Numbered from the stretch's first letter, positions 20,344 through 35,602 are shown. The stretch is 64,000 bases of DNA from an uncultured Candidatus Poseidoniales archaeon (GCA_902625325.1 CACOAW010000002.1:84347-148346); one strand, 5' to 3'. Numbers and translations are program-made. Notes: generated by a model from the sequence alone, not told the origin.

Positions 20344-23300
20344 ATGAGCAACCGCATTGAACACAACAGGACTCCAGCACTAACCATTGCCATTCTATTT
20401 CTGGGCATGGCATTGTCCGTGGGATTACACCAACAAAGTGGGGAAATACTCGACAATGAGCCAACCTCAATGGAGACCCATTCTGGGCTTAATATGCCGG
20501 GTTCTACGGTAGGATCAATATACTCTCTAACCGCACTGGGAGCGTCCCATGGCTATACCTGCGCTGTCTTAGACAACAACGAAATGAAATGCTGGGGGAA
20601 GGCAGAAAACGGATCACTAGGGAATGGTGATGATAGCCAAAATCAGTATACTCCGGTAGGGGTAAATGAACTGAACTCGGGTACTTGTTGTTTTTCCGAT
20701 ATCGAGGAGACGAGCCCAGACGGGGACCACTCTTGCGCTCTCTCCGATGGTTCAGTCTACTGTTGGGGCCTAGACACGGCCGGACAAATAGGGCATGGCC
20801 ATCTGAGTTGTGTCGGTAATGGATACTGCGTTAACCCACACGGTCCATCGGTTTTGAATAGAAACATCGTGACCTTCACAACCGGCCTTAGACACACATG
20901 CGCGATAGCAGACGACTCGACCGCATGGTGCTGGGGAGAGAACGACTTTGGACAACTCGGAGTTGGCGACAATGACGACAGGAACGCTCCGACCCAGGTC
21001 TTGTTGCCAGCTGGAACGACACCAATCTCGATTAACGCAGGTGGGCATACCACATGCGTCATCTTGGACAACGGAACTGGCCTTTGCTGGGGCAAGAGCG
21101 ATTACGGACATCTCGGAGACGGAACTTACAACAACAGGAATGAGCCAACTGCAATCTCAATACTCCCTTCGAACAGGTCACTGGTCGCAATGGATTTGGG
21201 TGCTGGCCACGCATGCGGAATCCTGGACGACGGCACGGCTCACTGTTGGGGCAACGGCACCTTCTCCTCTGGAGAGTCCGGAGGTCGGTTGGGCGACGGC
21301 TCCAACGAGAGCTCCAGGTTCCCTCGAAGTGTCTCACTTCCGTCTGGAAGAAACGCTATTTCGATAGACGTGGGCGTCGATCACACATGCGCAATACTGG
21401 ATGACAGCAGTGCAGTCTGCTGGGGCCTGAACGAAGAGGGACAGCTTGGCGATGGTACCACTTCCAACAGTACGACGCCGGTCAACGTATCCCTTCCGCT
21501 CGGCTTGACCTTTGGGGAGATCTCGGCAGGGCTGTCTCACACGTGCGCAGTGGCAACAAATGGCTCCGTTTACTGCTGGGGGGATCATGAGGAAGGGGCT
21601 CTGGGTCTGGGGGAGGATGTGGATAGCGATGTCCCAGCCTACGTCGACTTGGGTACAGATAGACACGCTCTGATGAGCGAACGGGATAACGACGATGATG
21701 GCATTGTGAACATCCTTGACCCGTTCCCCGACGGATGCCCCTCAGGACATTACGCAACGAACGGCACTTGTGAATTGGTCGAGCCAGGCCACTACACAAA
21801 CGACCTACCGCCATATGAGCGATTCACCTGTCAACCAGGAACCTACCAACCGAGTTACGGCCAGCTGGATTGCATAGACGCAAGTCCCGGTCACTACGTA
21901 ACCGAACCTGCCTCTGCATCTCAAATCCCGTGTGCAGTAGGAAGCTACCAACCGGACTCAGGCGAGCTATCTTGTATCCAATCCGATCCAGGTAACTACG
22001 TCTCAGATGAAGGTTCGATACGCCAAAATCAGTGCTCTCTAGGAACCTATCAACCATCTTCAGGGGCAGCAGATTGCATAGACGCAAGTCCCGGATACTA
22101 CGTTAACGACTTCGCGTCGGAAGAACAGACCCCCTGCGCAGCAGGAACGTACCAGATTCTGTCGGGAGCAACCTCGTGTTTCCAAGCCGGACCGGGATTC
22201 CACGTCCCATCAGAGGGATCGGACTCCCAGCAGCAATGCCAACCGGGAACATTCTCCTCCCAGCAGGGGCAGGCAGACTGCACCGAAGCCTCACCAGGGT
22301 ATTTCGTAGTTGGTGTGCAGCAAAACTCACAATCCGCATGTCAGCCGGGCGAGTTCCAAGATACACCAGGGCAGACCTCCTGCCTTTCAACCACTCCCGG
22401 GCACTACACAGACTCGGAGGGCTCGGCAGAGCAGACCCAGTGTCCCGCTGGAACCTACCAACCCGACTCAGGACAGACATTCTGCATAGAAGCAGAACCA
22501 GGATTCTACTCCGATTTAGGCTCTACATCGCAGATCCAATGCCAGAACGGCACATACTCATCTGAGCCAGGGCAGGGGTCCTGCACCCCATCAGAGCCTG
22601 GGTTCTTCGTGGACCTGGACGGAGCCACTGGGCCGACTCCATGCCCTCCTGGACAGTTCCAGTCGGAATCAGGGTCATCCGGATGCGAGACGCCTCCCCC
22701 GGGCCAGATAGCCAGTCCGGACGGATCGGCCACGGTTGCATGCCCAGCTGGAAAGTACCAGCCCGGTGACCAGTCGATTTGCGTGGACGCTTCTCCCGGA
22801 TACTTCGTCAATGAAACTGGATCTTCATCCCAGAGCCCGTGTTCGCCTGGCACATATCAACCAGATTCGGGACAATCATCGTGCCTACCCGCAAATCCCG
22901 GCAACTTCATCGACACTCCAGGGTCATCAAGCCAGACACCATGCCCAACTGGTCAGTTCCAGTCTTTCGGTGGCCAGCAATCATGCACTCCTGCCATGGC
23001 AGGTCATCATGTACCTGAAGAGGGGGCGATGTCCCAAACCTCGTGCAAGGCAGGTAATTACCAGCCGGACGAGGGCATGGAAAGCTGCATACCATCAGAC
23101 CCTGGTTACTTCGTTCCTTCATCAGGCGCGATATCCCAGAGTCCCTGTCAACCCGGTAACTACCAGTCAGAGGGAGGTAAGGCAGGGTGCCTACCTGCCG
23201 ATCCCGGGAACTACGTCTCTCAAGCCGCATCAACTGAGCAGACCAAGTGCCCTTCTGGACAAGAGCAGGAGCTCAGTGGCCAGGCTTCATGCATCGATGT

Positions 23301-23460
23301 TGAGAGGCCCCTGTGGATGTCGATATTGATGTTCGGAGTTCCAGCCATACTGGCAGGAACCATGGCAATCCTCTACATATCCAATAAGAAGAGTGCCGGT
23401 CCAAGAGGCAAAGGAAAGTCATACATGTACTCCGAGGACATAAGAAAGAAGCAGCCCTAG
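20344..23460 (+). CDS. Large surface protein: N-terminal signal/anchor, 7-blade RCC1-like beta-propeller, ~16 Cys-rich GCC2/GCC3 (ephrin-receptor-like) repeats, C-terminal TM anchor
   Basis: There are seven 'CWG....G.LG.G' units, then a repeated 'C..G.YQ...G...C....PG.(Y/F)V...GS..Q..C' unit. An N-terminal hydrophobic segment 'ALTIAILFLGMALSV' is present, as is a C-terminal TM 'WMSILMFGVPAILAGTMAILYI' followed by a basic tail. Confidence 0.8.
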   Translation: MSNRIEHNRTPALTIAILFLGMALSVGLHQQSGEILDNEPTSMETHSGLNMPGSTVGSIYSLTALGASHGYTCAVLDNNEMKCWGKAENGSLGNGDDSQNQYTPVGVNELNSGTCCFSDIEETSPDGDHSCALSDGSVYCWGLDTAGQIGHGHLSCVGNGYCVNPHGPSVLNRNIVTFTTGLRHTCAIADDSTAWCWGENDFGQLGVGDNDDRNAPTQVLLPAGTTPISINAGGHTTCVILDNGTGLCWGKSDYGHLGDGTYNNRNEPTAISILPSNRSLVAMDLGAGHACGILDDGTAHCWGNGTFSSGESGGRLGDGSNESSRFPRSVSLPSGRNAISIDVGVDHTCAILDDSSAVCWGLNEEGQLGDGTTSNSTTPVNVSLPLGLTFGEISAGLSHTCAVATNGSVYCWGDHEEGALGLGEDVDSDVPAYVDLGTDRHALMSERDNDDDGIVNILDPFPDGCPSGHYATNGTCELVEPGHYTNDLPPYERFTCQPGTYQPSYGQLDCIDASPGHYVTEPASASQIPCAVGSYQPDSGELSCIQSDPGNYVSDEGSIRQNQCSLGTYQPSSGAADCIDASPGYYVNDFASEEQTPCAAGTYQILSGATSCFQAGPGFHVPSEGSDSQQQCQPGTFSSQQGQADCTEASPGYFVVGVQQNSQSACQPGEFQDTPGQTSCLSTTPGHYTDSEGSAEQTQCPAGTYQPDSGQTFCIEAEPGFYSDLGSTSQIQCQNGTYSSEPGQGSCTPSEPGFFVDLDGATGPTPCPPGQFQSESGSSGCETPPPGQIASPDGSATVACPAGKYQPGDQSICVDASPGYFVNETGSSSQSPCSPGTYQPDSGQSSCLPANPGNFIDTPGSSSQTPCPTGQFQSFGGQQSCTPAMAGHHVPEEGAMSQTSCKAGNYQPDEGMESCIPSDPGYFVPSSGAISQSPCQPGNYQSEGGKAGCLPADPGNYVSQAASTEQTKCPSGQEQELSGQASCIDVERPLWMSILMFGVPAILAGTMAILYISNKKSAGPRGKGKSYMYSEDIRKKQP
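20521..21655 (+). repeat. Seven RCC1 repeats (protein-level)
   Basis: CWGKAENGSLGNG, CWGLDTAGQIGHG, CWGENDFGQLGVG, CWGKSDYGHLGDG, CWGNG...GGRLGDG, CWGLNEEGQLGDG, CWGDHEEGALGLG. Confidence 0.8.
21736..23292 (+). repeat. ~16 tandem ~32-aa Cys-rich repeats (GCC2/GCC3-like)
   Basis: The first Cys codon is at 21736 and the last at 23290-23292. The spacing of C/PG/Y(F)/Q residues is regular throughout. Confidence 0.75.
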
Positions 23461-23502: not shown

Positions 23503-24549
23503 ATGAGGGACTACCCAGGTGACAGAGTTGACCTCCGAAGCGACACGGTGACACAGCCAACCCCTCCGATGAGGGAGGCGATGGCAGGAGCCAGAGTGGG
23601 GGACGATGTATGGGGGGACGACCCCACAGTGATCCAACTTCAAGAGATGGTGGCTGAAATGCTCGGAAAGGAGGAATCTTTGTTCGTTCCTTCCGGTACA
23701 ATGTCCAATACGATTGCGATTAAAAGTCAGACAAACCACGGTGATGAGATAGTTACACATCGCAATAGCCACATCTACCTTTGGGAATCCGGAGCATATG
23801 CGTCCGTAGCAGGCTGCTCTATCGCGTTTGTCGATGGACGATTGGGCCAGATGAGTGCGGAAGGAGTCGAAAGTGCCATCAGGAAGACGGCTGGAAGCAA
23901 CTATCACTTCCCCGACTGCAAGTTAGTTTGTGTAGAAAATACCGCCAACGTAGGAGGTGGTTCAATCTACAATCAGGATACCTTGGATGGGATCTGTCAT
24001 GTCGCCCACGAAAACGACTGTAGAGCCCACCTAGATGGTGCCAGGCTTTTCAATGCCGTAATAGGCAGTGGGACGGACCCAGATCGCATGGTCAGGGACT
24101 TCGATACCATCTCGGTTTGCCTGTCAAAGGGACTAGGGGCCCCAGTGGGATCTGTTCTCGTCGGTGACGCGGATACAATCACCCGATCTCGTAGGTGGAG
24201 GAAGACCTTCGGAGGCGGGATGCGGCAATCCGGAATACTGGCCGCAGCTGGCATCTATGCTCTAGAAAACAACATCGAACGACTTTCCGAGGACCATATG
24301 CGGGCCTCTAGGCTCGCTGAATCTATCAATGCGATGGACTCCTTCTCCGTAGAACTGGAGGGAGTCCAATCGAATATGGTCTACGTGCAGTGTATTGAAG
24401 AGAGCGCCAGTGAAGTGGCCAGGAGGCTCGCCGAACTAGGAGTAGATGTGAGCGTGGAGACAGACTCCATAGTGAGGGCTGTAGCTCATCTCCATATCAC
24501 TGATGGGGACATAGACACAGCCGTAGAGGCCTTCGAGAAATCACAATAA
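23503..24549 (+). CDS. ltaE: Low-specificity L-threonine aldolase
   Basis: '[34 protein letters not shown]', 'PSGTMSN', and the PLP-lysine context '[14 protein letters not shown]'. Confidence 0.85.
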
Positions 24550-24587: not shown

Positions 24588-25610
24588 ATGAGGCGCCTCT
24601 GGGCACTAGTCCTGGTTGCACTCATCGTAATCCCGATGCAATCCTCTGCGGCTACGGAAAGCCTCTGGGACGATGCAAGGATAACTGGTGAGATAGGGGC
24701 CAGATATGGCACCATCGGAGGGATCTCGATCGAATTGTCCAATACGACCTATGAGGAATCCACATCTGGAATAATGGATCTGCCGAGCATAGTGGAGGTC
24801 TACACAGCCACATGGTGTTCCAACTGCATCAAGACCGAACAGGCCCTTGATGATGCGATCGGAGACCTCGACGTCACCAGGATACACTATCACAGACACC
24901 TCTACGAGACTCTGGACCCATTCGGAAGCAACTCCACCGACTCTAGATGGGTGAAAACCTACGGGGCTGGGTCCCTTCTTTCCACCGAGAGGTCAATGAC
25001 CGCATCAGACGGGGGGGTGGTGAAGATTCCCGGAACAGAAAGATCCGCTCCAAGCAAAGTCTTCGACGGAGAGAGGATGTACACAGGAATCAGCACAAAA
25101 TCAAACAGTCTGCTGACTGACTACTCTACCGCACTGGCATTGGGCTCGAGCCACCCCTTCTCATCAAATGGCTCAATCTCCCTAGAAGTGTCCGCTTCCA
25201 TGGCCATGCCAGCCAACGATAAGGGTGGGAACCATTCTGGAGAGATTCTGGACTACAACTTCCAGTGGGACATAAGCCTCTGGTCGGAGGAAGACTACCC
25301 ATGGGAGCTGAACACCTGGCTGATGTTCGTGGAAGATGTCGCATACCACCCAGAGGGAAGCAACGGGAAGGCGAACTACACTAATGTCCTTCATGAGGCT
25401 GTCAACGTGGGCACACGCCATTCAGGATCCTTCGCATTCGAGCCCCCCGAGCCATGGGATGGCGACGATATGTCCGTTGTCCTGATCGTAGACTGGGAAT
25501 CTCTAGATGCTTCCAATAGTTCGAATCCCATCCCGGCGCCGGGATTGACTACTCTTCTGTGCATGCTTGCCGCCTTGGTCCCTAGACGCCAAGAAGAATC
25601 CCGGTCGTAG
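24588..25610 (+). CDS. Exported thioredoxin-fold-like protein with single WCxxC motif and C-terminal hydrophobic anchor
   Basis: N-terminal signal 'LWALVLVALIVIPMQSSA', then 'EVYTATWCSNCIKTEQALDD', and the C-terminal 'PAPGLTTLLCMLAALVPRRQEE'. Confidence 0.4.
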   Translation: MRRLWALVLVALIVIPMQSSAATESLWDDARITGEIGARYGTIGGISIELSNTTYEESTSGIMDLPSIVEVYTATWCSNCIKTEQALDDAIGDLDVTRIHYHRHLYETLDPFGSNSTDSRWVKTYGAGSLLSTERSMTASDGGVVKIPGTERSAPSKVFDGERMYTGISTKSNSLLTDYSTALALGSSHPFSSNGSISLEVSASMAMPANDKGGNHSGEILDYNFQWDISLWSEEDYPWELNTWLMFVEDVAYHPEGSNGKANYTNVLHEAVNVGTRHSGSFAFEPPEPWDGDDMSVVLIVDWESLDASNSSNPIPAPGLTTLLCMLAALVPRRQEESRS

Positions 25611-25630: not shown

Positions 25631-28600
25631 TTGAATAACCACCGCCGAGCATGCCCAACGCTCGGAGATGACGATTTGCCAACAACGGAACACTCTGTGA
25701 CTATCGAGGAGGTCCCACCTGGGGGGATACCGGACTGGTTGAAACAACACATCCGACTTCAGTCCCTAGGAAAACCTAGCAATGACTCAAACCGCCATGG
25801 GAGAATTCTCATTATTTACCCAACAGAGAAATCCAAGAGACAAGCACTGTCATCAACAGACCTCAGAGGAGCCATAGATCGTACCCTCCATCACACCATG
25901 GATTCCCTGATTTCTTCACTGGTCGCAGATCTGAGGCTACCTCGAGTAATCTCCAACCAAGGTCCACTCAGTGCCATCATTCACACCGAGTGTCAGAAGG
26001 AGTCCTCGAGGCTGGGATTCCCGATGATCAACCCGCTACCAGAGATGAAGTGGGGCAAGGGCAAGACAGAGGCACTAGCAAACCTCCATCACCACCTTTC
26101 CAGGGAGTTGGTAGCTGAGAGGTGGGAAGGACCCGGTATACCCACATTCAGGAGGGTAATCACCAGACTCGAGGAGAAACTTCGATTCACACACCCGGAC
26201 ATGGTATGCGAACGGATCATCGATGCTCTGAAGGATGGAAGAATACCATTCACCATTTCGGATATAGACGGCATAATTATGCTCGATCACTCGCCGTCGA
26301 TGTACAAATCTCACACCCAGATTCTCCTGTCCCTTTCGAAGATAAGACCGATACATCAGCTTACATATCCCGGAAACTTTCGCATAGGTCACCATGGCCA
26401 TATGCTATTGGATCAACACCCAATAAGGGTCCCGGATGGCCTTCCCGATTGGGTACCCTCCCAGAGAACCCATCTTCGAGGCCCAACCACATCCGTGAAT
26501 AGGATTCTGCTTGACAGAGAGGCACACTCCTTCGAGGCAACAGCACGTATCGTCGCCGACAGACTAAGCAGAGAGGAATCCGAGATAATCATCGTAGACC
26601 CCGCCTTGGAGAACAACAGGCGAAAGTGGGAGCAAATTCTGGGTGATATCGGTATCACCATCGACAGGGGGTGGGCAAAACCATCGTCCCATTCCATCGG
26701 GCATTGGCTTCTGTTCCTGGCGAAATTGGGCCACGGAGCCGATGCTTTTTCCCTCAGTAGTCTCAGGTCGTTATCCCTTCAGACCTCAATCGTGCCATTT
26801 GGGGAGCTAGCGGAACACCCATTTGATCCCGAAATCTCCTGTTTGGCAGACTCGGAATTACTCACCAAGATGGCCAGGAACGAGCATGTCCTAGGCGGAC
26901 CCGGGGCCCTCTCTAAATGGGTGGAAACCCTCTCCAGACCTCCAAAACACGAAAGAGACGGACCGAGAAAAGAAGCCGCACAATGGTGGCTTATGAGCCT
27001 CGCAGCTTCCATAAGGCCGCTACTAAGAGAGCCTGACCGGAAATTAGTTGCAAACCTGACTGAAGTTGTTGGATGCCATTCAGGAGCCAAACTCCCGCTT
27101 CCGGATGCCCCGCAGGATGGAGATGAGTGGTTACAAAGAACGCTATCCCTAATTGATATTCCAGCCCATATGGACCGATTCTCGGGCAGGGGCCTATCCC
27201 CAGCGGCGGTAATCGAAGCCCTGTCTAAAGAGAGAGATACCTTGAGGGCGATGCAGAGACAGTCAGGTCATGCGCCTCCAAAACTAGGTTGGGATTGGGT
27301 GGAGGAACTCCATTTTATAGCGGACCAGACCAAAGCCAGGACCGGTGGTTCCAATTTTACGTGTGGAATTTCGGTGTTGACTCCTGATGAAGCCTTGGGT
27401 TGTTCAGCGGATTTAGTGGTGCTATCAAACTTATCTAGCTCATCATGGGAATTGAGAGTACCAAAGGTGCCCTTCGTTGGTGAGGATGAACGACACGCAC
27501 TTGGAATACTCAGACCAGACGCTACAATCAGAAACGCCAGACATAATCTACTTCACTTATTGAACTGCTCATCGGAGGCATTCGTCCTTGACCCGACCGC
27601 TGACGAAACCTCTCCACCTGCTGCGCCGATAAGGGAGTGGGCCGAGGATTTTGAGGCAAGAGGATTGGATAGCCAAACGTACGAAACCTCAGAGTGGACA
27701 TATTCCCCAAGACGCCTCAGGCAGGTTGACGGACTCAGAATAAGACAAGGCAAGCCCCCAAATCAATCTCCAATCAACCCCAGCGCGGTATCAATACCCC
27801 TTGACCAAATCCTCCAAAGGGACCGTGAGAGGAGACAACCGTTCATGCCTTCCAATGACGGATACCTGCCCGAGGAAAACATTCAGCACCTACTCTCCAT
27901 CGAGAAGTTCAAACTTCACGGCAAGGCACCACCAGGGATAGAAAATCCCAGAAACAACGTCAGATGGCCGGTGGTGGGAGCAACAATAAACGGAAAGAGA
28001 ACTCCTTCGATTGACCCCAGGCCCTTCTCACCAATGGCTACAGGTGTACGCGTTAGTGATTCCAGAAACGGGCACTCCGGGGAGACGGCTCAGGAGATAC
28101 CGGTCTGGTCCCCGACTCGACTCCAGACTTGGTCAAGATGTCCGAGAATGGGATGGCTGAAAAGAGAATTAGGCGCTGAAAGAGAGGACCTACAATCAGA
28201 GGACATAGACAATAGGACGTATGGGGAACTGCTTCACAGTGTTCATCACGACATAGTCACGCAGGTCTTGGGGTTCGGGACCAGCGAAGAAAGGGCGCAT
28301 GACGGTGGCAAGGGTCACATCAGCGTCCAAAGATCGGGTTTGGATCAAACCGAGATCATGCGAATCGCCCTAGAGTCTCTGGACTCCCTAGCTCCTTGGT
28401 TAGAAAGAACTGACGCCGTCTCGACTCAAAGACTCAGATCTCTGACTGGCATGGACAGGAATGAGTGGAACAGCTGGATAGCAGACCCAAAACCAATCCT
28501 CCCTAGGGGGAGGATTGGGGGCCTGGTAACGGCGGAGCTTGAGATCGGCGATTCCGCTCCCATCTCTATAGAATGGAGAGTCAGAAAGGGTGCCTTGGAC

Positions 28601-29242
28601 TACATCCAAATCAATCCAACTCCTGAGATATTAGAAAGGAATGAATCTGATCCAATCAGAGTCAGGGGATGGATAGACAGGGTGGATGTACTCCCAATGG
28701 ATTTGGACTCACAGGTCTGGGTGGATAATGAAGGGAGCGAAACGGTAGCACCGATCAGAATCAAGGGTTCCGGCTGGAAACCAAAACGGCTGATTGCAAT
28801 CAGAGACCTGAAGACATCTGAGACTAACTCCCAAAGGAACAGACACTATCAGGGCCTTCTCGAAGAGCTTCAACTTGCGGTTTATGCCAGGGCATGGGAG
28901 GAAGCCCACCCTGGAGACCTAGTAGTAGCAACCGGAATTTCGGTAATCGGACCCAAATCAAACCACTTTTTGGAGGTGTCTCAGATGCTCGAATCTTCTC
29001 AATCAGGAATCAACATCGGTACGAAAACTACGGTCACGTCCTATCTCCACAGATTCGCGGATGAGGACGAGGATGCTGACTCCGATCATTTTAGAGCATG
29101 GTTAGCCCAACGACTTTCTGTAGCAATGGGAGTAGCTAACAATGCCAAGAAGGGTAAGGTGACCCCAACCCCATCCTCCAGAGTGTGTAGTTATTGCCCC
29201 GTGGGGGAGTTCTGCGATGTTAGGATGGGGGGGTCTTTCTGA
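25631..29242 (+). CDS. addB: AddB/RexB-like helicase-nuclease subunit (RecB-family nuclease with Fe-S staple cysteines)
   Basis: PD-(D/E)XK core 'IAIRDLKTSE' and 'QLAVYARAW'. Cys in 'WSRCPRMGW' (28139-28141) plus 'CSYCPVGEFC' (C-x2-C-x5-C, 29186-29215) matches the AddB 4Fe-4S arrangement. It lies immediately upstream of an AddA-type gene. The start is uncertain (TTG 25631 or GTG 25697). Confidence 0.75.
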   Translation: MNNHRRACPTLGDDDLPTTEHSVTIEEVPPGGIPDWLKQHIRLQSLGKPSNDSNRHGRILIIYPTEKSKRQALSSTDLRGAIDRTLHHTMDSLISSLVADLRLPRVISNQGPLSAIIHTECQKESSRLGFPMINPLPEMKWGKGKTEALANLHHHLSRELVAERWEGPGIPTFRRVITRLEEKLRFTHPDMVCERIIDALKDGRIPFTISDIDGIIMLDHSPSMYKSHTQILLSLSKIRPIHQLTYPGNFRIGHHGHMLLDQHPIRVPDGLPDWVPSQRTHLRGPTTSVNRILLDREAHSFEATARIVADRLSREESEIIIVDPALENNRRKWEQILGDIGITIDRGWAKPSSHSIGHWLLFLAKLGHGADAFSLSSLRSLSLQTSIVPFGELAEHPFDPEISCLADSELLTKMARNEHVLGGPGALSKWVETLSRPPKHERDGPRKEAAQWWLMSLAASIRPLLREPDRKLVANLTEVVGCHSGAKLPLPDAPQDGDEWLQRTLSLIDIPAHMDRFSGRGLSPAAVIEALSKERDTLRAMQRQSGHAPPKLGWDWVEELHFIADQTKARTGGSNFTCGISVLTPDEALGCSADLVVLSNLSSSSWELRVPKVPFVGEDERHALGILRPDATIRNARHNLLHLLNCSSEAFVLDPTADETSPPAAPIREWAEDFEARGLDSQTYETSEWTYSPRRLRQVDGLRIRQGKPPNQSPINPSAVSIPLDQILQRDRERRQPFMPSNDGYLPEENIQHLLSIEKFKLHGKAPPGIENPRNNVRWPVVGATINGKRTPSIDPRPFSPMATGVRVSDSRNGHSGETAQEIPVWSPTRLQTWSRCPRMGWLKRELGAEREDLQSEDIDNRTYGELLHSVHHDIVTQVLGFGTSEERAHDGGKGHISVQRSGLDQTEIMRIALESLDSLAPWLERTDAVSTQRLRSLTGMDRNEWNSWIADPKPILPRGRIGGLVTAELEIGDSAPISIEWRVRKGALDYIQINPTPEILERNESDPIRVRGWIDRVDVLPMDLDSQVWVDNEGSETVAPIRIKGSGWKPKRLIAIRDLKTSETNSQRNRHYQGLLEELQLAVYARAWEEAHPGDLVVATGISVIGPKSNHFLEVSQMLESSQSGINIGTKTTVTSYLHRFADEDEDADSDHFRAWLAQRLSVAMGVANNAKKGKVTPTPSSRVCSYCPVGEFCDVRMGGSF

Positions 29243-32200
29243 TTCGCCTAAATACAGCCCAGCGTCTGGCTCTGAATCTTGATTCACACATCGTAATTGA
29301 CGCTGGTGCAGGAACCGGAAAGACAAGCACCATCGTTGATAGGGTTATTGAGCACTATTTAGCGAGTGACCAGAGAGCGACGAGAATCCTACCAAAACCG
29401 TCTAGGGCATCAAATATTGGAGAGGGAATGGTTACCGCACCCGCTTCCGAGAGAACCAATCTGCAGGATTGGGACGGCCTATTGCCGAGCGAGGTAGTCC
29501 TGCTAACTTTCACCAACAGAGCAGCCGACGAGATGAAGGACAGGCTCCGACGCACAATCTCGAGGGTAAGGCCCGGCCCTCTCGGAGACGACGGGGAACA
29601 TCGCTACGATCCCCGCATAAAGAGCCAAGGATTCATCGAGCAACTCCTTACTCTGCTAGAAGACGCTCCTATCGGTACGATAGACTCTTTCCTGTCTCAG
29701 TTAGTTTCTCCCTACAGGGGGAAACTTGGAAACGTCCTCAGCAAGGAGAACATATCTGACTCCGCGAGAGCAATAATGGTGGAGCAGGCCCTCAAGACGA
29801 TATGGAGGCTGCCAAAAAACAGATCCAAAATCGGGGACGCGGTTGACGCTGGTATACCCGCACACATTGCTTCCGATGTCCTCTCGGCGAGAGACCGTGT
29901 CGCTCAGCACTATTCTGGTAGAACTTCCGCTTCCAGAGTGCTGAGATCTCTGGTAGGGAAGTCAGTGTTCGTGGAAGAGTCATCACGCAAAATAATGGAT
30001 GAGAACGGTGACGTGGATAGAAATAGACTGCTCGCTATGATCATGTCATCGATAGAAGATACACAAATCAATGAGCAAGCCGATAGAGTAGCCACAACCG
30101 TCGGAGAAATCTTTGACACAATCAAGGAATGCATCCAGACCCCGTCCTCATCCGGCTGGGCACCAGAAACCAGGATGGCCTGCCTGGAAGAACTCGTCAG
30201 AAAGGGGCCCCCTACGGATACTTGGGAAAAGCTCTGCTGGATGGGGCACCTGCTTACATGTACTGTTAGCCAATCAAGCCTGATGACAAAGGAAATGAAA
30301 CACTTCCCGGGAATGAAATTGCCATCTGATGAGTGGGATGCTGGAATTAAAAGCTATGCTGAGATAAAAGATCCAAACCTCAAGGCACTGTACAAAACCA
30401 ATGTGAGAGGGAAAGCAACAGAGTTGTCTTCTATATGGTCAGATGAGTTGGGAAGCATAGTACTACATTTCGTGAGGATTGCCTTGCTGCTGGGGGAATC
30501 AAAACCTCCTCACGTCCCTGATGGGTGGTCAAAGCCGACCGTTAAACTTCCCGCAGAACTTCCAGATAGACTCGAAAAGCCTAACAAGACCCACCATTTC
30601 AGTCTCGAAGCCGAAATCCAGAATCTAAACGACCTCCACCTTTTACACCTGGGATTTCAGGGCGTTATGAAGAACCTAAAGCTACGGGACGATGTCCACG
30701 ATTTCGATGATATCCAGAGACTAGCTGGAGATTTGCTGCTCGCGAATTGCCCAGAGGTTTGCCGGACCTTCTACCATCCCAGTGTCCAACAGGCTTTGGA
30801 CTCGATTGACCAAGAACGTCCTTGGAGGGATGATCATGTGCATAGAGCGCTGAAAGCCCTTTCCGTTTTGGAAGAAAACCCCGAGCTTGCTGGTGAGGCA
30901 GCATCGAGACTGGTAGCAATGCGGGCCGATATCGAAAGTAGACACCTTTTGTTAGGCCAAATCAGAAGGAGATTCAGGGCATTCATTATCGACGAGGCTC
31001 AGGACAACTCGCCACTGCAATGGAGACTCCTATCACGTCTCTGGGGACCCAGGGAATTAAGGGATGAGGATGCTCCTAGGCCGGACACACCATGGGAACC
31101 AACTGTATGTTATGTTGGAGACGTAAAACAAAGCATCTATGCCTTTAGGCAGGCGGAAGTGACAGGGTTCCTAGACTTCGCAAAGTCTCTGAGGGCAGTA
31201 AACATTCACGAATTCTCCAGTGTATCGGAACTAACCAGAAAACCATCACTCAGGAAGGAAACTCACAGCAGAGATCCCAGGAACGACCATCATTCCTCTA
31301 TAGCCAGGGCCACCGAGCACATGGAGCGGGGTGGCAGGGATTTGGTGCCTTGGATTCCATTCGATGCAACCGACTGGGACCTTCCAGCCCCAACCTCAGA
31401 GGAGGTAAAGGCCCGTAAAGAAGGGATGATATCTCTGAAGGTAAATTACCGCTCTTCTGGAGGACTATTGGGGGTTATGAACGAATGGTGGGAAGACGTC
31501 TTCTCCGAAAGGCATAGGACATTTCCAAACGCTGACTTCTATGCATCCCCCCAGACACTGCACTCATTCCCCGAAAAGCGAGATATCCCCGGACTAATAG
31601 AGTGGATTTGCCCTCCAGACTCTGAGAATTCATCAGACCCACCAACTGATCTGGAGATGCATTTGGACCCCTTCGGACCAGGTAACACCGACCGGTTAGA
31701 GAGGCAGGCTACGTTAATCGCAATGAGGGTCAGGAGCCTCATTGAGGGGAGCCCCGTAAGGGTCAGGTCATCCTCTGGAGAGTGGAAAGAGGCAGATTCG
31801 TCAGAACCCGTCCGTCCAAGTGACATAACAATTCTATTGCCCAACAGGGTAAATCTCAGGGACGTGATTGTCAGGAATCTGCAAGATTTAGACGTTCCAT
31901 ACCAGGTAGACCGGGAGGGAAGTCTGATGGAACGCCCAGCAGTGTCGGCCTTAGAGGGCCTAATTCAATTCGTAGCTAGGCCACATTCTCGTTATTATGC
32001 CACATGGGTCGCGCGCTCCCCGCTGATCGGAATGAGTGACGGACAACTACAGAGGTACCTTTCGTCATCAGACGATGGCGAGGACCTCCTCTCGATCATG
32101 ATCTCCCACTGCGATAGTGAGAGGCAGAGATCGTTAGTCTCTCGGTGGCGCGAACTCTCATCTTCCTCCCTGCTGGGGGAACTTCTCCAGGACACAATAG

Positions 32201-34161
32201 ACCGCTCAGACCTCCTTATCGCACTTCCTGACGAGGTGTCTCGCCAGGACGCGGAGCAATTCTGCGATCTATTCAGTGAATTGTCAAATCAGGTAGGGGG
32301 GGATCCCATAGTCCTAGCAGACTGTCTTAGAGACCTCAGAGAAAACCCCTCCCAATCGATAGAAGCATCCACGGTCCCGCAAGGCGATGCTGTCAGGGTA
32401 ATGACTATTCACAGTTCCAAGGGGCTTGAGGCAAAGGTGGTCGTTCTTGCTGACCTATTCTCCTCTAGACAGACCAATATGAGAAATGAGCAGAATAGCC
32501 GGTTGATAGTCGGACCCGAGATGTATGCTGGCCACCCGAAGCCATGGCCAATGGGGAAGGCACCGATGTCAGCGCTCTGGGAACACGCATCCTTACTTCA
32601 CAGAGCAAGGAAGAATGCTGAGGCTAGGAGACTGTTGTACGTAGCAGCCACGAGAGCAGAGGAGCGGCTAATCATAGCCGGATCGCCCACAGGGACGATT
32701 TGGATAGATGGAGAGGGGTTAACATTTCCATGGACTTACGACAAGTCAGCACCCCAACTCGGGCAGATGTGGTTAGAGTCCCTCAGAGCTGGGTCATTGC
32801 GGAGGGGGGAAGAGGGTTCCCCTTGGCTGAGTCAGACCGATATGGGGTCCGAACCAGTCCTTGAGAGCAGAGGTAGCAGAACCTTATGCCCCGCAGCGAT
32901 CATGGACAATGGGTACCTAGGGTTCAGGAAAAAGACGGGCATCAAAATTCTACATCACCCAGAGTGTTTTACCGATACTGGAACGGGCGGAAGCCAGATT
33001 ACCACGCCGCTTCAGAGAATCAGAATAATCGACGAATCATCTCGGAGCGATCCAACGAACGGTGCCGAATCTCCCTCACTCAAGCCAATTCGATACTCCA
33101 CGACAGTGAAGGCGAATCCCAGCAAGCTCCCGTCCTACTACGATTGCCCGAGGTGCCAATGGATGGAGTTGAGGGCAGGTTTGGAATCAACAGGGGCCGT
33201 CAGAAACGATGAGGCTGAGGATCATACAGGACAACCCCTGTCGGTGGATCCTGCAACATTCGGGAACGTTTTCCACAGGATCGTCGAGATTGGAATCGGG
33301 AACCCTGGACCAATGCAGAATGGCCCAACCACTCCTCTCCCAAGGTCATGGACCACTCCCACGGAGGATAAAATCAACGACAAAGAGACACATCAAATCG
33401 CATTCAGAGAATTACTCCCACCGGGAGCCGACCTCTCAAGGGTTGCAGAGGCCGTTTCAATCATGGCCCGCAGAGTCTCTGAAGGGAAATTGGGGGCCAT
33501 GGTCACAGGTCAGGAGGTGGATGGGAGAAGGGTAGAGGGTCTGAGAACTGAGATGCCATTCCAAATATCCATCCCCACACAATTTGAATCTGTGACGCGG
33601 AGTAAGTGGACACCAGATGGTGATGAAGTGCTTATCTCATTCGATTCCACTAGAATCGAGCTAAGCGGAATCATAGACTTGGTTGTATGCACTCAGAGCG
33701 ATGACGGGGCCCCAGCAATCCGGGCCATTGACCTGAAAACTACGGATGCAAGCTCCCTACTTGGAGACTGGGAAAGTGGGCTTCTGGACTCTCTAGATGA
33801 TGACTCAATCGGGCCCTCTTGTCAGGCTGAGGAATCCCTGCTAAACAAGCACAGGCTGCAGATGGCTCTCTACCATCTAGCATTGGAAGAGTCGGAGTCG
33901 GACAAGGAGCGCGAGGGACTACCTAGGCGGAAGGTCCTCCCTCCGGCGATACTAGTTGGGGTTTCTGGAAGGCTAGTGGAGTATCCCTCCGAGACCCTCG
34001 AAAAGGCCAAGAAGGACCTGGAGAAGACGCTTGCTCTGACTGCTAGGATGTCATTAGCCTCAGAGTTCCCCTTATCCGTCGTAGAGAAGGACTACGAGGA
34101 TCGGATTTCGAAGTGCAGGAACTGTTCGATTTCAGAGGAAATCGAGTCGAAGAGTCCATGA
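29239..34161 (+). CDS. addA: AddA/RexA-like SF1 (UvrD/PcrA-type) helicase with C-terminal RecB nuclease; the start codon is unresolved (first canonical start is 29428, downstream of the Walker A box)
   Basis: Motif I 'DAGAGTGKT' (29299-29325), Ia 'TFTNRAADEM', II 'IIDEAQDNS' (DEAQD 30991-31005), III 'VGDVKQSIYAFRQA', IV 'VNYRSS', V 'MTIHSSKGLEAKVV', VI 'LLYVAATRAEERL'. The nuclease region carries 'IRAIDLKTTD' (DLK 33730-33738) and 'QMALYHLAL'. The frame is open from 29224. The start given here is the CTG at 29239 and is tentative. Confidence 0.8.
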   Translation: MIRLNTAQRLALNLDSHIVIDAGAGTGKTSTIVDRVIEHYLASDQRATRILPKPSRASNIGEGMVTAPASERTNLQDWDGLLPSEVVLLTFTNRAADEMKDRLRRTISRVRPGPLGDDGEHRYDPRIKSQGFIEQLLTLLEDAPIGTIDSFLSQLVSPYRGKLGNVLSKENISDSARAIMVEQALKTIWRLPKNRSKIGDAVDAGIPAHIASDVLSARDRVAQHYSGRTSASRVLRSLVGKSVFVEESSRKIMDENGDVDRNRLLAMIMSSIEDTQINEQADRVATTVGEIFDTIKECIQTPSSSGWAPETRMACLEELVRKGPPTDTWEKLCWMGHLLTCTVSQSSLMTKEMKHFPGMKLPSDEWDAGIKSYAEIKDPNLKALYKTNVRGKATELSSIWSDELGSIVLHFVRIALLLGESKPPHVPDGWSKPTVKLPAELPDRLEKPNKTHHFSLEAEIQNLNDLHLLHLGFQGVMKNLKLRDDVHDFDDIQRLAGDLLLANCPEVCRTFYHPSVQQALDSIDQERPWRDDHVHRALKALSVLEENPELAGEAASRLVAMRADIESRHLLLGQIRRRFRAFIIDEAQDNSPLQWRLLSRLWGPRELRDEDAPRPDTPWEPTVCYVGDVKQSIYAFRQAEVTGFLDFAKSLRAVNIHEFSSVSELTRKPSLRKETHSRDPRNDHHSSIARATEHMERGGRDLVPWIPFDATDWDLPAPTSEEVKARKEGMISLKVNYRSSGGLLGVMNEWWEDVFSERHRTFPNADFYASPQTLHSFPEKRDIPGLIEWICPPDSENSSDPPTDLEMHLDPFGPGNTDRLERQATLIAMRVRSLIEGSPVRVRSSSGEWKEADSSEPVRPSDITILLPNRVNLRDVIVRNLQDLDVPYQVDREGSLMERPAVSALEGLIQFVARPHSRYYATWVARSPLIGMSDGQLQRYLSSSDDGEDLLSIMISHCDSERQRSLVSRWRELSSSSLLGELLQDTIDRSDLLIALPDEVSRQDAEQFCDLFSELSNQVGGDPIVLADCLRDLRENPSQSIEASTVPQGDAVRVMTIHSSKGLEAKVVVLADLFSSRQTNMRNEQNSRLIVGPEMYAGHPKPWPMGKAPMSALWEHASLLHRARKNAEARRLLYVAATRAEERLIIAGSPTGTIWIDGEGLTFPWTYDKSAPQLGQMWLESLRAGSLRRGEEGSPWLSQTDMGSEPVLESRGSRTLCPAAIMDNGYLGFRKKTGIKILHHPECFTDTGTGGSQITTPLQRIRIIDESSRSDPTNGAESPSLKPIRYSTTVKANPSKLPSYYDCPRCQWMELRAGLESTGAVRNDEAEDHTGQPLSVDPATFGNVFHRIVEIGIGNPGPMQNGPTTPLPRSWTTPTEDKINDKETHQIAFRELLPPGADLSRVAEAVSIMARRVSEGKLGAMVTGQEVDGRRVEGLRTEMPFQISIPTQFESVTRSKWTPDGDEVLISFDSTRIELSGIIDLVVCTQSDDGAPAIRAIDLKTTDASSLLGDWESGLLDSLDDDSIGPSCQAEESLLNKHRLQMALYHLALEESESDKEREGLPRRKVLPPAILVGVSGRLVEYPSETLEKAKKDLEKTLALTARMSLASEFPLSVVEKDYEDRISKCRNCSISEEIESKSP

Positions 34162-34183: not shown

Positions 34184-35602
34184 ATGACGCTTGACCTAGG
34201 ACGACTGATGGATAGGAGTGAAGAGATATGGGAGTCCTCCATTTTGCCTAGTCTGTCCGATTTCATCGGGATAAAGGCCCTATCTCCCCTATTCGAGCCC
34301 AACTGGGCCGAGATGGGTGAGCTGGATGCCACAATCGAACTATTCTGCGAGTGGCTGGACGATCAGGGAATAGAGGGAATTTCGTACGAGAAGCATAGGA
34401 TAGGAGAACTATCACCCGTACTAATTGTCACAATAGAGGGAACCGGCCCGGGCGAGGTGATATTCTACTCCCACCTGGACAAGCAGCCGTCAAAGCCAGA
34501 ACTGTGGTCAGAAGGTCTACACCCACTGAAAGCAGTTAGGAGGGATCCATGGCTCTATGGCAGAGGCTCCGTTGACGATGGGTATGGGGGATACCTTTGC
34601 GCCACATCTGTAAGGCTCCTGCAAGAAGCAGGCGCCCCTCATCCCCGTTGTACCATGATTATCGAGACGTGCGAGGAATCCGGATCATTCGACCTCCCGT
34701 CCTACCTGGAGGCACTTTCCGACAGACTTGGAAATCCGGACATGGTGGTCGTTTTGGACAGCGGGGGTCCCGATTATGACCATATTTGGATGACAGAGGC
34801 TCTTCGTGGGCTTGTCTCCGGGACTCTATCCGTGAAGGTATCTCACGAGGGAATTCACTCAGGAAACTCGGGGGGCTCAATCCCATCTTCTTTCAGGATC
34901 CAGCGGATTCTACTGGACAGAGTGGAGGACTCGTCCTCAGGAAAGGTCACAATCCCGGAGATGCACGTGGAAATCCCCGAAGAAGTCAGGGAGAACGCAA
35001 TCTCTCTCAGGGATATAGTAGGAGACAGCATATGGGAGCAGTTCCCAACGGTGGACACTCTCAGAAAGGCCTCCGAAACTACGGAGGACATGATAGTGGC
35101 CATGAACTGGGAGCCTACCCTGTCCATCATCGGAGCAGACGGAATTCCTTCGGTGCAGGACGCGGGAAACGTCCTCCGAACGAACACAGACCTGAAACTA
35201 AGCTTCAGGATACCCCCTGGGGTCGATTCGGAGTATGCTACAGCTCGTGCAAAGGAAATCCTGGAGAAGGACCCCCCATATGGGGCAGAGGTCACATTCA
35301 CTCCTGACTCATGTTCCGACGGTTTCCATGCACCGCCACTAGACGGACCGATCTCAGAAGCCATTAACGCGGCATCGATGGAGTTGACAGGGCTGCCCCC
35401 ACTGGCAACATGGACAGGGGGTACGATTCCCTTCATGGCGATGATGCAGGGCAAATACCCAGAAGCCATGTTTCTGTGCACTGGTACTTCGGGACCAGGG
35501 AACAATGCCCATGGGCCAGACGAGAAACTGCACATCCCCTCATCCAAGAGGCTGACAGTCGCTCTATCGGCAACAATAGCAGCAATTACTGAAAACCTCT
35601 GA
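34184..35602 (+). CDS. M20-family metallopeptidase (dipeptidase/CNDP-like)
   Basis: 'FYSHLDKQP', 'PWLYGRGSVDDGYG', 'ETCEESGS', and a dimerisation-domain-sized middle region. Confidence 0.75.
   Translation: MTLDLGRLMDRSEEIWESSILPSLSDFIGIKALSPLFEPNWAEMGELDATIELFCEWLDDQGIEGISYEKHRIGELSPVLIVTIEGTGPGEVIFYSHLDKQPSKPELWSEGLHPLKAVRRDPWLYGRGSVDDGYGGYLCATSVRLLQEAGAPHPRCTMIIETCEESGSFDLPSYLEALSDRLGNPDMVVVLDSGGPDYDHIWMTEALRGLVSGTLSVKVSHEGIHSGNSGGSIPSSFRIQRILLDRVEDSSSGKVTIPEMHVEIPEEVRENAISLRDIVGDSIWEQFPTVDTLRKASETTEDMIVAMNWEPTLSIIGADGIPSVQDAGNVLRTNTDLKLSFRIPPGVDSEYATARAKEILEKDPPYGAEVTFTPDSCSDGFHAPPLDGPISEAINAASMELTGLPPLATWTGGTIPFMAMMQGKYPEAMFLCTGTSGPGNNAHGPDEKLHIPSSKRLTVALSATIAAITENL

Follow-up and report, generated by a model that had tools for sequence, protein, structure and literature searches.

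Results and Discussion

The AddA-like protein encoded in the window, a stretch of 64,000 nucleotides from an uncultivated archaeon of Marine Group II (Ca. Thalassarchaeaceae), is preceded by no canonical start codon at the place where its homologues begin. The arrangement of the junction with the upstream addB-like gene, read together with its orthologues, argues that AddA synthesis probably begins at ATT 29242 or CTG 29239, with the help of a Shine-Dalgarno element and in coupling to the termination of addB. The run of seven G residues at this junction is most likely the ribosome-binding site with one base changed, and its register with the addB frame appears to be a by-product and not a recoding signal.

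Structure of the addB-addA junction

All features described here are located on the plus strand. The longest open reading frame of the addB-like gene spans positions 25631-29242, and database gene calls place its start at about 25697, 22 codons after the start of that frame. Its 3' end reads ...GTT AGG ATG GGG GGG TCT TTC TGA, and the TGA stop codon (29240-29242) overlaps the position of the addA start by one base, as TGATT in the window and as TGATG in most orthologues. The addA-like frame is closed upstream by a TAG (29221-29223), which arises at the synonymous site of an addB Val codon (GTT AGG) and is found 9 codons upstream of the asparagine codon of LNTAQ, that is, 6 codons upstream of ATT 29242. 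From 29224 the frame is open and reads DGGVFLIRLNTAQRLALNLDSHIVIDAGAGTGKT, with the Walker A box AGAGTGKT at 29302-29325. In this frame ATG 29428 is the earliest of the codons ATG, GTG and TTG, and it comes after the box. The 61 AddA N-terminal codons before any canonical start (29245-29427) thus include this box. The rest of the gene, which gene finders call from the internal ATG (29428-34161), encodes a UvrD-like helicase and a C-terminal PD-(D/E)XK nuclease.

The G7 run (29227-29233) occupies the site at which the Shine-Dalgarno element of addA, GGAGG(GG), is conserved. Parsed in the addB frame it is G_GGG_GGG, in the X_XXY_YYZ register, and a -1 slip on it enters the addA frame at GTC 29233. 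Two candidate near-cognate start codons follow: CTG (29239-29241), which immediately precedes the ancestral start codon and follows the core equivalent to GGAGG at a distance of 7 nt, and ATT (29242-29244), at the same place as the ATG of 49 orthologous junctions. Elements of the GGAGG or GAGGTGA type also precede the starts of other genes in the window. Neither an Rfam search nor a tRNA scan of the 64,000 nucleotides gave a match. An earlier note on this DNA had described the G7 run, the addB stop, the opening of the addA frame, the lack of ATG, GTG or TTG in that frame until 29428 with the Walker A box upstream, and the in-register heptamer leading by a -1 slip into the addA frame; a recheck confirmed all of these statements.

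The two proteins

In Pfam searches the AddA-like protein matches UvrD-helicase (2.6e-32), UvrD_C (6e-14) and PDDEXK_1 (3.2e-10), and its best match among solved structures is Bacillus subtilis AddA (3U44_A, 3.8e-10). The entire 1,640 residues are conserved, with the helicase and nuclease domains intact. The AddB-like protein has a PDDEXK_1 match at residues 1054-1196 (1.6e-16), and its C-terminus, ...CSYCPVGEFCDVRMGGSF, carries a CxxCx5C cysteine motif shortly ahead of the stop codon, predicted to be of the iron-sulfur type. Pfam and solved-structure searches with this protein found no helicase-type family match and no solved relative. Both proteins share features with AddAB of B. subtilis (PDB 3U44 and 3U4Q) and with RecB-family helicase-nucleases: a UvrD-type SF1 helicase with a C-terminal PD-(D/E)XK nuclease in the AddA-like protein, and likewise a C-terminal PD-(D/E)XK nuclease and the CxxCx5C cysteines in the AddB-like protein. 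However, the resemblance is very remote, and the host here is archaeal. By comparison, the AddA-like protein has about 400 extra residues, and in the AddB-like protein no helicase-like domain is detectable, whereas AddB has an inactive one at its N-terminus. The addA and addB names used in the earlier note agree with the domain architecture but fail at the level of curated equivalogs (TIGR02784/TIGR02785), where the addA_alphas score is 149.9 bits, below the cut-off of 860.75. Judged by sequence, both proteins are distant AddAB-like proteins and not equivalogs, and AddAB-like is the best name for them. A literature search found no paper joining AddAB with Marine Group II.

Comparison of orthologous junctions

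The junction was compared at the DNA level in a set of 88, of which 80 came from a metagenome scan with the N-terminal alignment. A scan of a genome collection with the full-length AddA alignment gave at least six Marine Group II loci among the 80 matches listed, the others being distant bacterial AddA or RecB proteins. The addB stop is at the same place in 88 of the 88 junctions, and stop and addA start overlap by 1 or 4 nt. The overlap takes the form TGATG or TAATG in 49 junctions, ATGA in 10 and TGATT, TGATC or TGATA in 28; the remaining one (L127), which is TGATG by eye and was misparsed by the script, is counted apart from the 49. Most orthologues begin MRLNTAQRLALNLDSHIVIDAGAGTGKT, with the methionine aligned with ATT 29242 of the window, and a few begin MIRLN, with the methionine on the CTG of the window.

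A Shine-Dalgarno element (GGAGG, GAGGTGATCC, GAGGTGAT(CC) or the G-rich variant of the window's group) is located 6-10 nt upstream in all junctions except the misparsed L127 and L149. The GGAGG, which is GGGGG in the window and in L164, lies 10 nt upstream of the ATT/ATC/ATA position. The upstream motif varies in form yet stays complementary to a 16S 3' end, which argues that it is a Shine-Dalgarno element and does not reflect only constraint on the AddB peptide. The G7 run itself is GGAGGGG with a single A-to-G change, by which the addB codon GAG becomes GGG, and its predicted pairing with the archaeal anti-Shine-Dalgarno sequence, assumed here and not taken from this genome, is nearly unchanged. 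The run of seven occurs only in the window and in three near-identical contigs, which belong to its own strain population. GGGGGCG is the sequence in the nearest relative, L164 (89% at the amino acid level), and the 23 other junctions without ATG have GGAGGG followed by G, T, A or C. The comparison of orthologous junctions, proposed in the earlier note as a check, therefore gave a conserved non-AUG start without a homopolymer, an outcome that the note itself had named as evidence against a frameshift.

Relatives in which the addB codons are GTC AGG have CAG in place of the TAG of the window, so that gene callers stretch the addA calls of such relatives to an upstream ATG or TTG. These starts (calls beginning MQRQDGG...) were considered and set aside as the conserved start: they lie in the addB cysteine-motif codons without a Shine-Dalgarno element, and they are cut off by the TAG in the window and in about half of the clade.

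A clade without the canonical start codon

ATT, ATC or ATA occupies the ancestral ATG position in 28 of the 28 junctions of the window's clade. In a neighbor-joining tree of 76 sequences and 480 residues, the 24 junctions of this type that were included form a single clade with a bootstrap of 100/100. The identity of full-length AddA proteins to that of the window extends down to about 63%, which indicates that the non-AUG state is old and stable. At least 13 junctions of the clade have an in-frame stop 9 codons upstream and no ATG, GTG or TTG before the Walker A box, so that only non-canonical starts remain in them. In most of the 28, the window included (ATT 29242, CTG 29239), a canonical restart codon is missing at the overlap. 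The codon at the position of CTG 29239 is ATG in L003, L100 and L102 and TTG in L095 and L099; one subclade (bootstrap 100/100) has a new ATG one codon upstream, as ATGATA or ATGATC, and TTGATC is found at two loci. On the aligned sequences, the new ATG of the subclade and the TTGATC of the two loci look like compensation for a weak start.

Alternative readings of the junction

An AddA protein that starts at ATG 29428 would be a helicase without motif I; alternatively, the gene might be in decay. The internal ATG is preceded by GGAGAGGGA, and most database calls of the closest relatives begin there. However, the 61 upstream codons (29245-29427) behave as coding sequence. Among 19 clade members pS is 0.67 and pN is 0.046 in the addA frame, giving a pN/pS of 0.068, and the values for the other two frames are 2.8 and 3.5; the protein is almost invariant while synonymous sites are near saturation. 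Such strong purifying selection (pN/pS 0.07) indicates that these codons are translated. In addition, the methionine at 29428 is replaced by L, V or T in relatives, several of which have no ATG at that position, and conservation of the full-length protein with both of its domains speaks against decay. A start at 29428, or a decaying gene, is therefore very improbable.

The earlier note had put forward as its main proposal a programmed -1 frameshift on G_GGG_GGG (29227-29233) that joins AddB to AddA in a polypeptide of about 2,800 residues and would be the main source of AddA containing the Walker A box. The heptamer is indeed in register, the slip enters the addA frame between the TAG at 29221-29223 and the TGA at 29240-29242, and the run is present in four assemblies. 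However, the heptamer is limited to the strain population of the window: the nearest relative has G_GGG_GCG, the other relatives without a canonical start have G_GAG_GG followed by G, T, A or C and then varied codons, and no slippery tetramer or heptamer is shared in the sole stretch where a shift could work. The fold of 29234-29333 is not significant (MFE z -1.72; 12 of 200 shuffles as good), its predicted helix directly abuts the run, leaving no spacer, and alifold gives 15 relatives a consensus fold of -3.98 kcal/mol with 0 covarying pairs. No fusion was found among the 120 listed of 316 homologues, a comparison that bears on fused ORFs only, and the longest has 1,682 residues. Runs of G7 are no commoner in the window than expected by chance (11, as compared with 15.3 +/- 5.0 in shuffles). 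The lowest frameshifting measured in E. coli, 0.018%, was that of G_GG.G_GG.U, and G_GG.G_GG.N is absent from the efficient motifs of the same study (PMC4066793). With heptamer, downstream structure and fused protein all unconserved or absent in the comparison, the proposal of a programmed frameshift is difficult to sustain and we consider it highly unlikely. Incidental slippage on the run, by a ribosomal -1 shift or by insertion of one G by RNA polymerase, would add a little AddB-AddA fusion to the product of normal initiation. The geometry permits it, and with a stimulator present most heptamers slip measurably more than background in E. coli (PMC4066793). However, no stimulator was found downstream, G-rich A-site motifs are poor, and the run is strain-specific, so that any slippage product is unlikely to be selected for; this possibility is rather unlikely, though less so than a programmed shift. 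It is compatible with initiation at a non-AUG codon. A slip on the shifty stop T_TTC_TGA was also considered as a conserved mechanism and rejected, the base before TTC being C, A or T in relatives.

Homopolymers are error-prone on some sequencing platforms, and a G8 run would fuse the two frames, so that the G7 run could be an error of length hiding either a fusion or a normal start. This alternative, also raised in the earlier note, was refuted. Three more assemblies, from different samples and separated from the window by 37-110 SNPs over 7-8.5 kb, all have G7. Frame relation and stop position are unchanged in 83 other junctions, in which the stretch is no homopolymer but the seven bases GGAGGxx or a related Shine-Dalgarno form. 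No run length yields a canonical start. Four assemblies with G7, together with the same frame in orthologues without a homopolymer, exclude such an error for all practical purposes.

Proposed initiation mechanism

Initiation at CTG 29239 or ATT 29242 had been listed in the earlier note as the last of its alternatives, and it is the one that the geometry of the orthologues supports. The addB and addA genes would form a translationally coupled, overlapping pair. At the ancestral junction, a Shine-Dalgarno element within addB, at its 3' end, would have preceded a TGATG with stop and start sharing one base. In the lineage of the window the ATG would have changed to ATT, ATC or ATA, which has been retained since, and this loss and retention make it most likely that AddA starts with initiator tRNA on a near-cognate codon. 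Either AUU 29242, which keeps the ancestral position, or its neighbor CUG 29239 would serve as the start codon. The initiating ribosomes may be held by the Shine-Dalgarno element or may come directly from addB termination (termination-reinitiation), and the product would begin M(I)RLNTAQ..., like its orthologues, with the Walker A box retained.

The sequences show the geometry of the junction and its conservation, the translation of the codons before 29428 and the lack of conserved frameshift signals. The choice between AUU and CUG, like the dependence of initiation on addB termination, is something that we infer. Conservation of the CTG is uninformative because the Phe and stop codons of addB (TTC TGA) force it, and the two codons are indistinguishable by sequence. 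The synonymous-looking turnover of ATT, ATC and ATA is also what one would see if the codon were just read as isoleucine, for example after a CUG start. No internal promoter, terminator or opposite-strand gene was found at the junction, where the minus strand has short ORFs only; the promoter scan is uninformative for archaea because it is of the bacterial type, and by eye no TATA-like box was seen 25-30 nt upstream of 29239.

In the systems where they have been tested, near-cognate codons are weak starts. To our knowledge, initiation at codons other than AUG, GUG or UUG has no documented case in these archaea. A review of archaeal initiation mentions only these three. In E. coli, AUA, AUC, AUU and CUG are the four near-cognate codons that initiate at 1-2% of AUG, and infC and pcnB have AUU starts (Hecht et al., 10.1101/063800). 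As in those two genes, the near-cognate codon of the window is found at the AUG position of homologues, is conserved in relatives and has a Shine-Dalgarno element upstream. However, the host is archaeal, the codon overlaps the upstream stop, its third base drifts among U, C and A, and there is no sign of autoregulation of the infC type.

Overlapping TGATG and ATGA pairs show strict termination-reinitiation coupling in Haloferax volcanii and E. coli (Huber et al. 2019, PMC6728339). The pair in the window, a putative case of such coupling, is also co-directional and encodes two subunits of one complex, shares one base between stop and start, has its Shine-Dalgarno element inside the upstream gene, and keeps this overlap architecture in every one of the 88 junctions examined. 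It differs in that the restart codon of the clade is AUU, AUC or AUA (or the adjacent CUG) and not AUG, GUG or UUG. The likeness to the X_XXY_YYZ sites of dnaX and of IS911/IS3 orfAB is limited to a heptamer of one repeated base that keeps the 0-frame register shortly before the upstream ORF ends, the downstream ORF being in the -1 frame. Unlike those systems, the window has no stimulatory structure and no known fused homologue, its heptamer is not conserved and belongs to the poor G-rich A-site class, and the run coincides with the Shine-Dalgarno element of the downstream gene. G-rich tetramers such as G_GG.G (with a following G) were judged to act probably as a Shine-Dalgarno sequence for low-level initiation at a -1-frame AUA 7 nt downstream, and not in frameshifting (Sharma et al. 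2014, PMC4066793).

A stricter form of the proposal may be put forward tentatively, at somewhat less than even chances. The sole source of AddA would be ribosomes that, fresh from completing AddB, restart at UGAUH on AUU, AUC or AUA or on the CUG beside it; an abundant Marine Group IIb clade would long have lived without a canonical start for AddA, and the G7 run of the window strain might leak a trace of AddB-AddA fusion. If this is true, coupling would be obligatory, with the output of AddA tied to that of AddB, and the junction would be a natural, conserved case of near-cognate reinitiation in archaea.

Significance

The mechanism is ordinary; the start codon is unusual and conserved. Gene finders give at least five different wrong N-termini for this abundant helicase of ocean archaea, four of them truncated (two without the ATP-binding loop) and one extended into addB, and such errors across the clade imply many mis-started catalogue entries, which the alignment-based start at 29239/29242 corrects. 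The junction is also a caution that an in-register homopolymer between genes can be a mere variant of a Shine-Dalgarno element. For the biology of these archaea, it offers a clean natural case of a UGAUG coupling junction that is without its AUG and still functional across a deep clade. This loss, together with the ATG re-created at the neighboring codon in one subclade, provides a convenient test of start-codon relaxation under termination-coupled reinitiation in archaea.

Results

The addB-like gene occupies positions 25631..29242 on the forward strand, ending GTT AGG ATG GGG GGG TCT TTC TGA. The addA-like frame on the same strand is open from 29224, directly after TAG 29221-29223, and encodes DGGVFLIRLNTAQRLALNLDSHIVIDAGAGTGKT. 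Its Walker A box (29302-29325) lies upstream of the first canonical start: no ATG, GTG or TTG occurs in this frame before ATG 29428, which is 62 codons 3' of ATT 29242. A run of seven G residues (29227-29233, forward strand) falls in the register G_GGG_GGG. Re-checking confirmed the earlier note in the position and register of the run, the opening of the addA frame and the late ATG. Runs of seven G are not rare in the window (11 against 15.3 +/- 5.0 expected); besides the run at the junction, the window has one run of eight G (5541-5548) and nine of seven, nearly all on the forward strand. A second G-rich, Shine-Dalgarno-like stretch, GGGGGAG, is found at 29203-29209, preceding the G7 run by 17 nt. 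Relatives carry GAGAGAA or similar there, so this stretch is also specific to the lineage of the window. The opposite strand at the junction holds nothing relevant. No terminator was found at the junction, and no promoter in a scan of bacterial type, the host being archaeal.

The AddA-like protein is a UvrD helicase with UvrD_C and PDDEXK_1 domains. The AddB-like protein has PDDEXK_1 at its C-terminus, with a cysteine motif CxxCx5C at the end, and no helicase-like domain or Walker A box by Pfam. Since the former scores far under the AddA equivalog thresholds, its closest solved relative is B. subtilis AddA, and no solved relative of the latter was found, 'AddAB-like' is a fair name for the pair. 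Towards the C-terminus of the AddA-like protein, its nuclease region has four cysteines that are invariant in 28 diverse orthologues: C1308, C1489, C1631 and C1634, numbered from 29224 (codons 33145-33147, 33688-33690, 34114-34116 and 34123-34125). Their conservation hints at an iron-sulfur cluster in this nuclease as well. B. subtilis AddA is not known to contain such a cluster. All homologues listed (best 120 of 316) belong to Marine Group II archaea (Poseidoniales), and one carries the name Candidatus Thalassarchaeaceae. The start of the AddB-like protein is ambiguous, at TTG 25631 or, in database calls, at about 25697. A 340-residue ORF without a Pfam match (24588-25610) lies immediately upstream. 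Further upstream lie an ORF (20344-23457) whose 1,038-residue product has ephrin-receptor-like domains and RCC1-like repeats and, after it, a gene for a beta-eliminating lyase (23503-24546). The gene downstream of addA encodes an M20 peptidase (34184-35599). The 64-kb window contains no tRNA gene and no Rfam family at the gathering threshold.

The junction was compared in 88 loci, all anchored on the asparagine codon of LNTAQ: the window, 4 genome and 79 metagenome loci among the matches listed, three contigs encoding a protein identical to that of the window, and one contig of the nearest distinct relative. The architecture is uniform, with a constant position of the addB stop and a constant relative frame of addA. 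T(G/A)ATG, with one base common to stop and start, is present in 49 junctions; one more locus (L127), misparsed by the script, has TGATG by eye. Ten junctions have ATGA, and the remaining 28 have TGATT, TGATC or TGATA. Nearly all carry a Shine-Dalgarno (SD) element upstream of the overlap, mostly GGAGG at 10 nt, with AGGAGG, GAGGTGAT or GAGGTGATCC in distant junctions. The form varies and complementarity to a 16S rRNA 3' end is retained, which marks the element as a ribosome-binding site and not merely a constraint of the AddB peptide. Similar elements precede other genes in the window.

The 28 junctions with ATT, ATC or ATA form one clade (bootstrap 100/100) in a neighbor-joining tree of 76 sequences and 480 amino acids, in which 24 of them were included. 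Across this clade the full-length AddA identity to the window drops to about 63%; the absence of a canonical start is clade-wide and old. In at least 13 of these junctions the frame is closed by a stop 9 codons before the anchor and contains no ATG, GTG or TTG ahead of the Walker A box, so that no canonical option is left. For the 61 codons from the overlap to the first canonical start, pS is 0.67, pN 0.046 and pN/pS 0.068 in the addA frame, versus pN/pS of 2.8 and 3.5 in the other two frames. By this substitution pattern the 61 codons are clearly translated. In a subclade of three loci (L003, L100 and L102; bootstrap 100/100) a new ATG one codon upstream (ATGATA/ATGATC) gives an ATGA overlap and replaces the C-terminal Phe of AddB by Leu. 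In two further loci, L095 and L099, the sequence is TTGATC, the TTG having arisen via a synonymous TTC-to-TTT change. Both changes look like compensation for a weak start, a reading in line with the purifying selection reported for prokaryotic AUG starts (PMC5622118).

Discussion

The G7 run is located at the position of the SD element, which in the clade of the window reads ATGGAGGGGTC or nearly so. One A-to-G change (Glu to Gly in addB) has produced ATGGGGGGGTC in the window and the three near-identical contigs; in L164, the nearest distinct relative with 89% protein identity, the stretch reads ATGGGGGCGTC. The earlier note had considered a one-base homopolymer error. This is refuted: the three contigs come from separate samples and show 37-110 substitutions relative to the window in 7-8.5 kb, so the run is real, and the identical seven-base spacing in all non-homopolymer orthologues excludes an error in run length. 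The predicted pairing with an assumed archaeal anti-SD sequence is -13.8 kcal/mol for the window versus -14.7 kcal/mol for GGAGGGG. In one metagenome contig with a canonical TGATG junction (L103, CEOQ01167537.1), GAGGGGGG (G6) occupies the SD position; G-rich variants of the element thus arose more than once.

The main proposal of the earlier note, a -1 slip on G_GGG_GGG fusing AddB to AddA, agrees with the register of the run and is not supported by the comparison. Only the stretch from TAG to TGA, about 15 nt, permits a working shift into the addA frame, and within it no slippery tetramer or heptamer is common to the clade without a canonical start. The downstream fold in the window begins right after the run; it lacks significance (z -1.72) and conservation, and covarying pairs are absent. 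No AddB-AddA fusion is present among the best 120 of 316 homologues, the longest having 1,682 residues. A systematic study in E. coli measured its lowest frameshifting, 0.018%, on G_GG.G_GG.U, and considered that G-rich tetramers such as G_GG.G with a following G probably served as SD sequences for weak initiation at a -1-frame AUA 7 nt downstream (PMC4066793), an arrangement to which the window junction is closely similar. Trace incidental slippage may occur on G7 in this one strain, and nothing suggests selection for it. A near-cognate start overlapping the addB stop, a minor alternative in the earlier note, is the best explanation, with ATT, ATC or ATA standing clade-wide where the orthologues have ATG and with the upstream codons conserved.

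Initiation of AddA would then be assisted by the SD element, coupled to addB termination, and made at a near-cognate codon. The candidates are AUU 29242, at the ancestral position and 10 nt from the SD core, and CUG 29239, 7 nt from it. Most of the best 120 of 316 homologues start MRLNTAQRLALNLDSHIVIDAGAGTGKT, with Met aligned to ATT 29242; a few start MIRLNTAQ, placing Met on CTG 29239. Measurable initiation from AUA, AUC, AUU and CUG has been found in E. coli (10.1101/063800), and TGATG and ATGA overlaps show strict termination-reinitiation coupling in an archaeon and E. coli (PMC6728339; review PMC12548453). The choice between AUU and CUG, an obligatory coupling and the amount of AddA can only be inferred. 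In a single-sequence fold, UCUUUCUG (29234-29241), which spans the addB stop and the candidate CUG, pairs with CGGAAAGA (about 29315-29323) among the codons of the Walker A box. Such pairing could hide the start as long as addB is untranslated, but it is neither significant nor conserved.

Public AddA calls in the clade of the window (entries P0001-P0036; region 29224-29430) have at least five different N-termini, incoherent even between closest relatives: MVTAPASER..., which begins at an internal Met, MDRVIEHYL..., MIDAGAGTGKT..., MALNLDSH... and an extended MQRQDGGVILIRLN... (MQRQDGG...). All seem to be artefacts caused by the lack of a canonical start, and such incoherence is the pattern expected when the true start is invisible to gene finders. 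The clusters holding mis-started calls have well over a thousand member sequences together. The conserved non-canonical start thus leads to systematic mis-annotation, and its presence at a coupling junction in uncultivated archaea is of modest interest.
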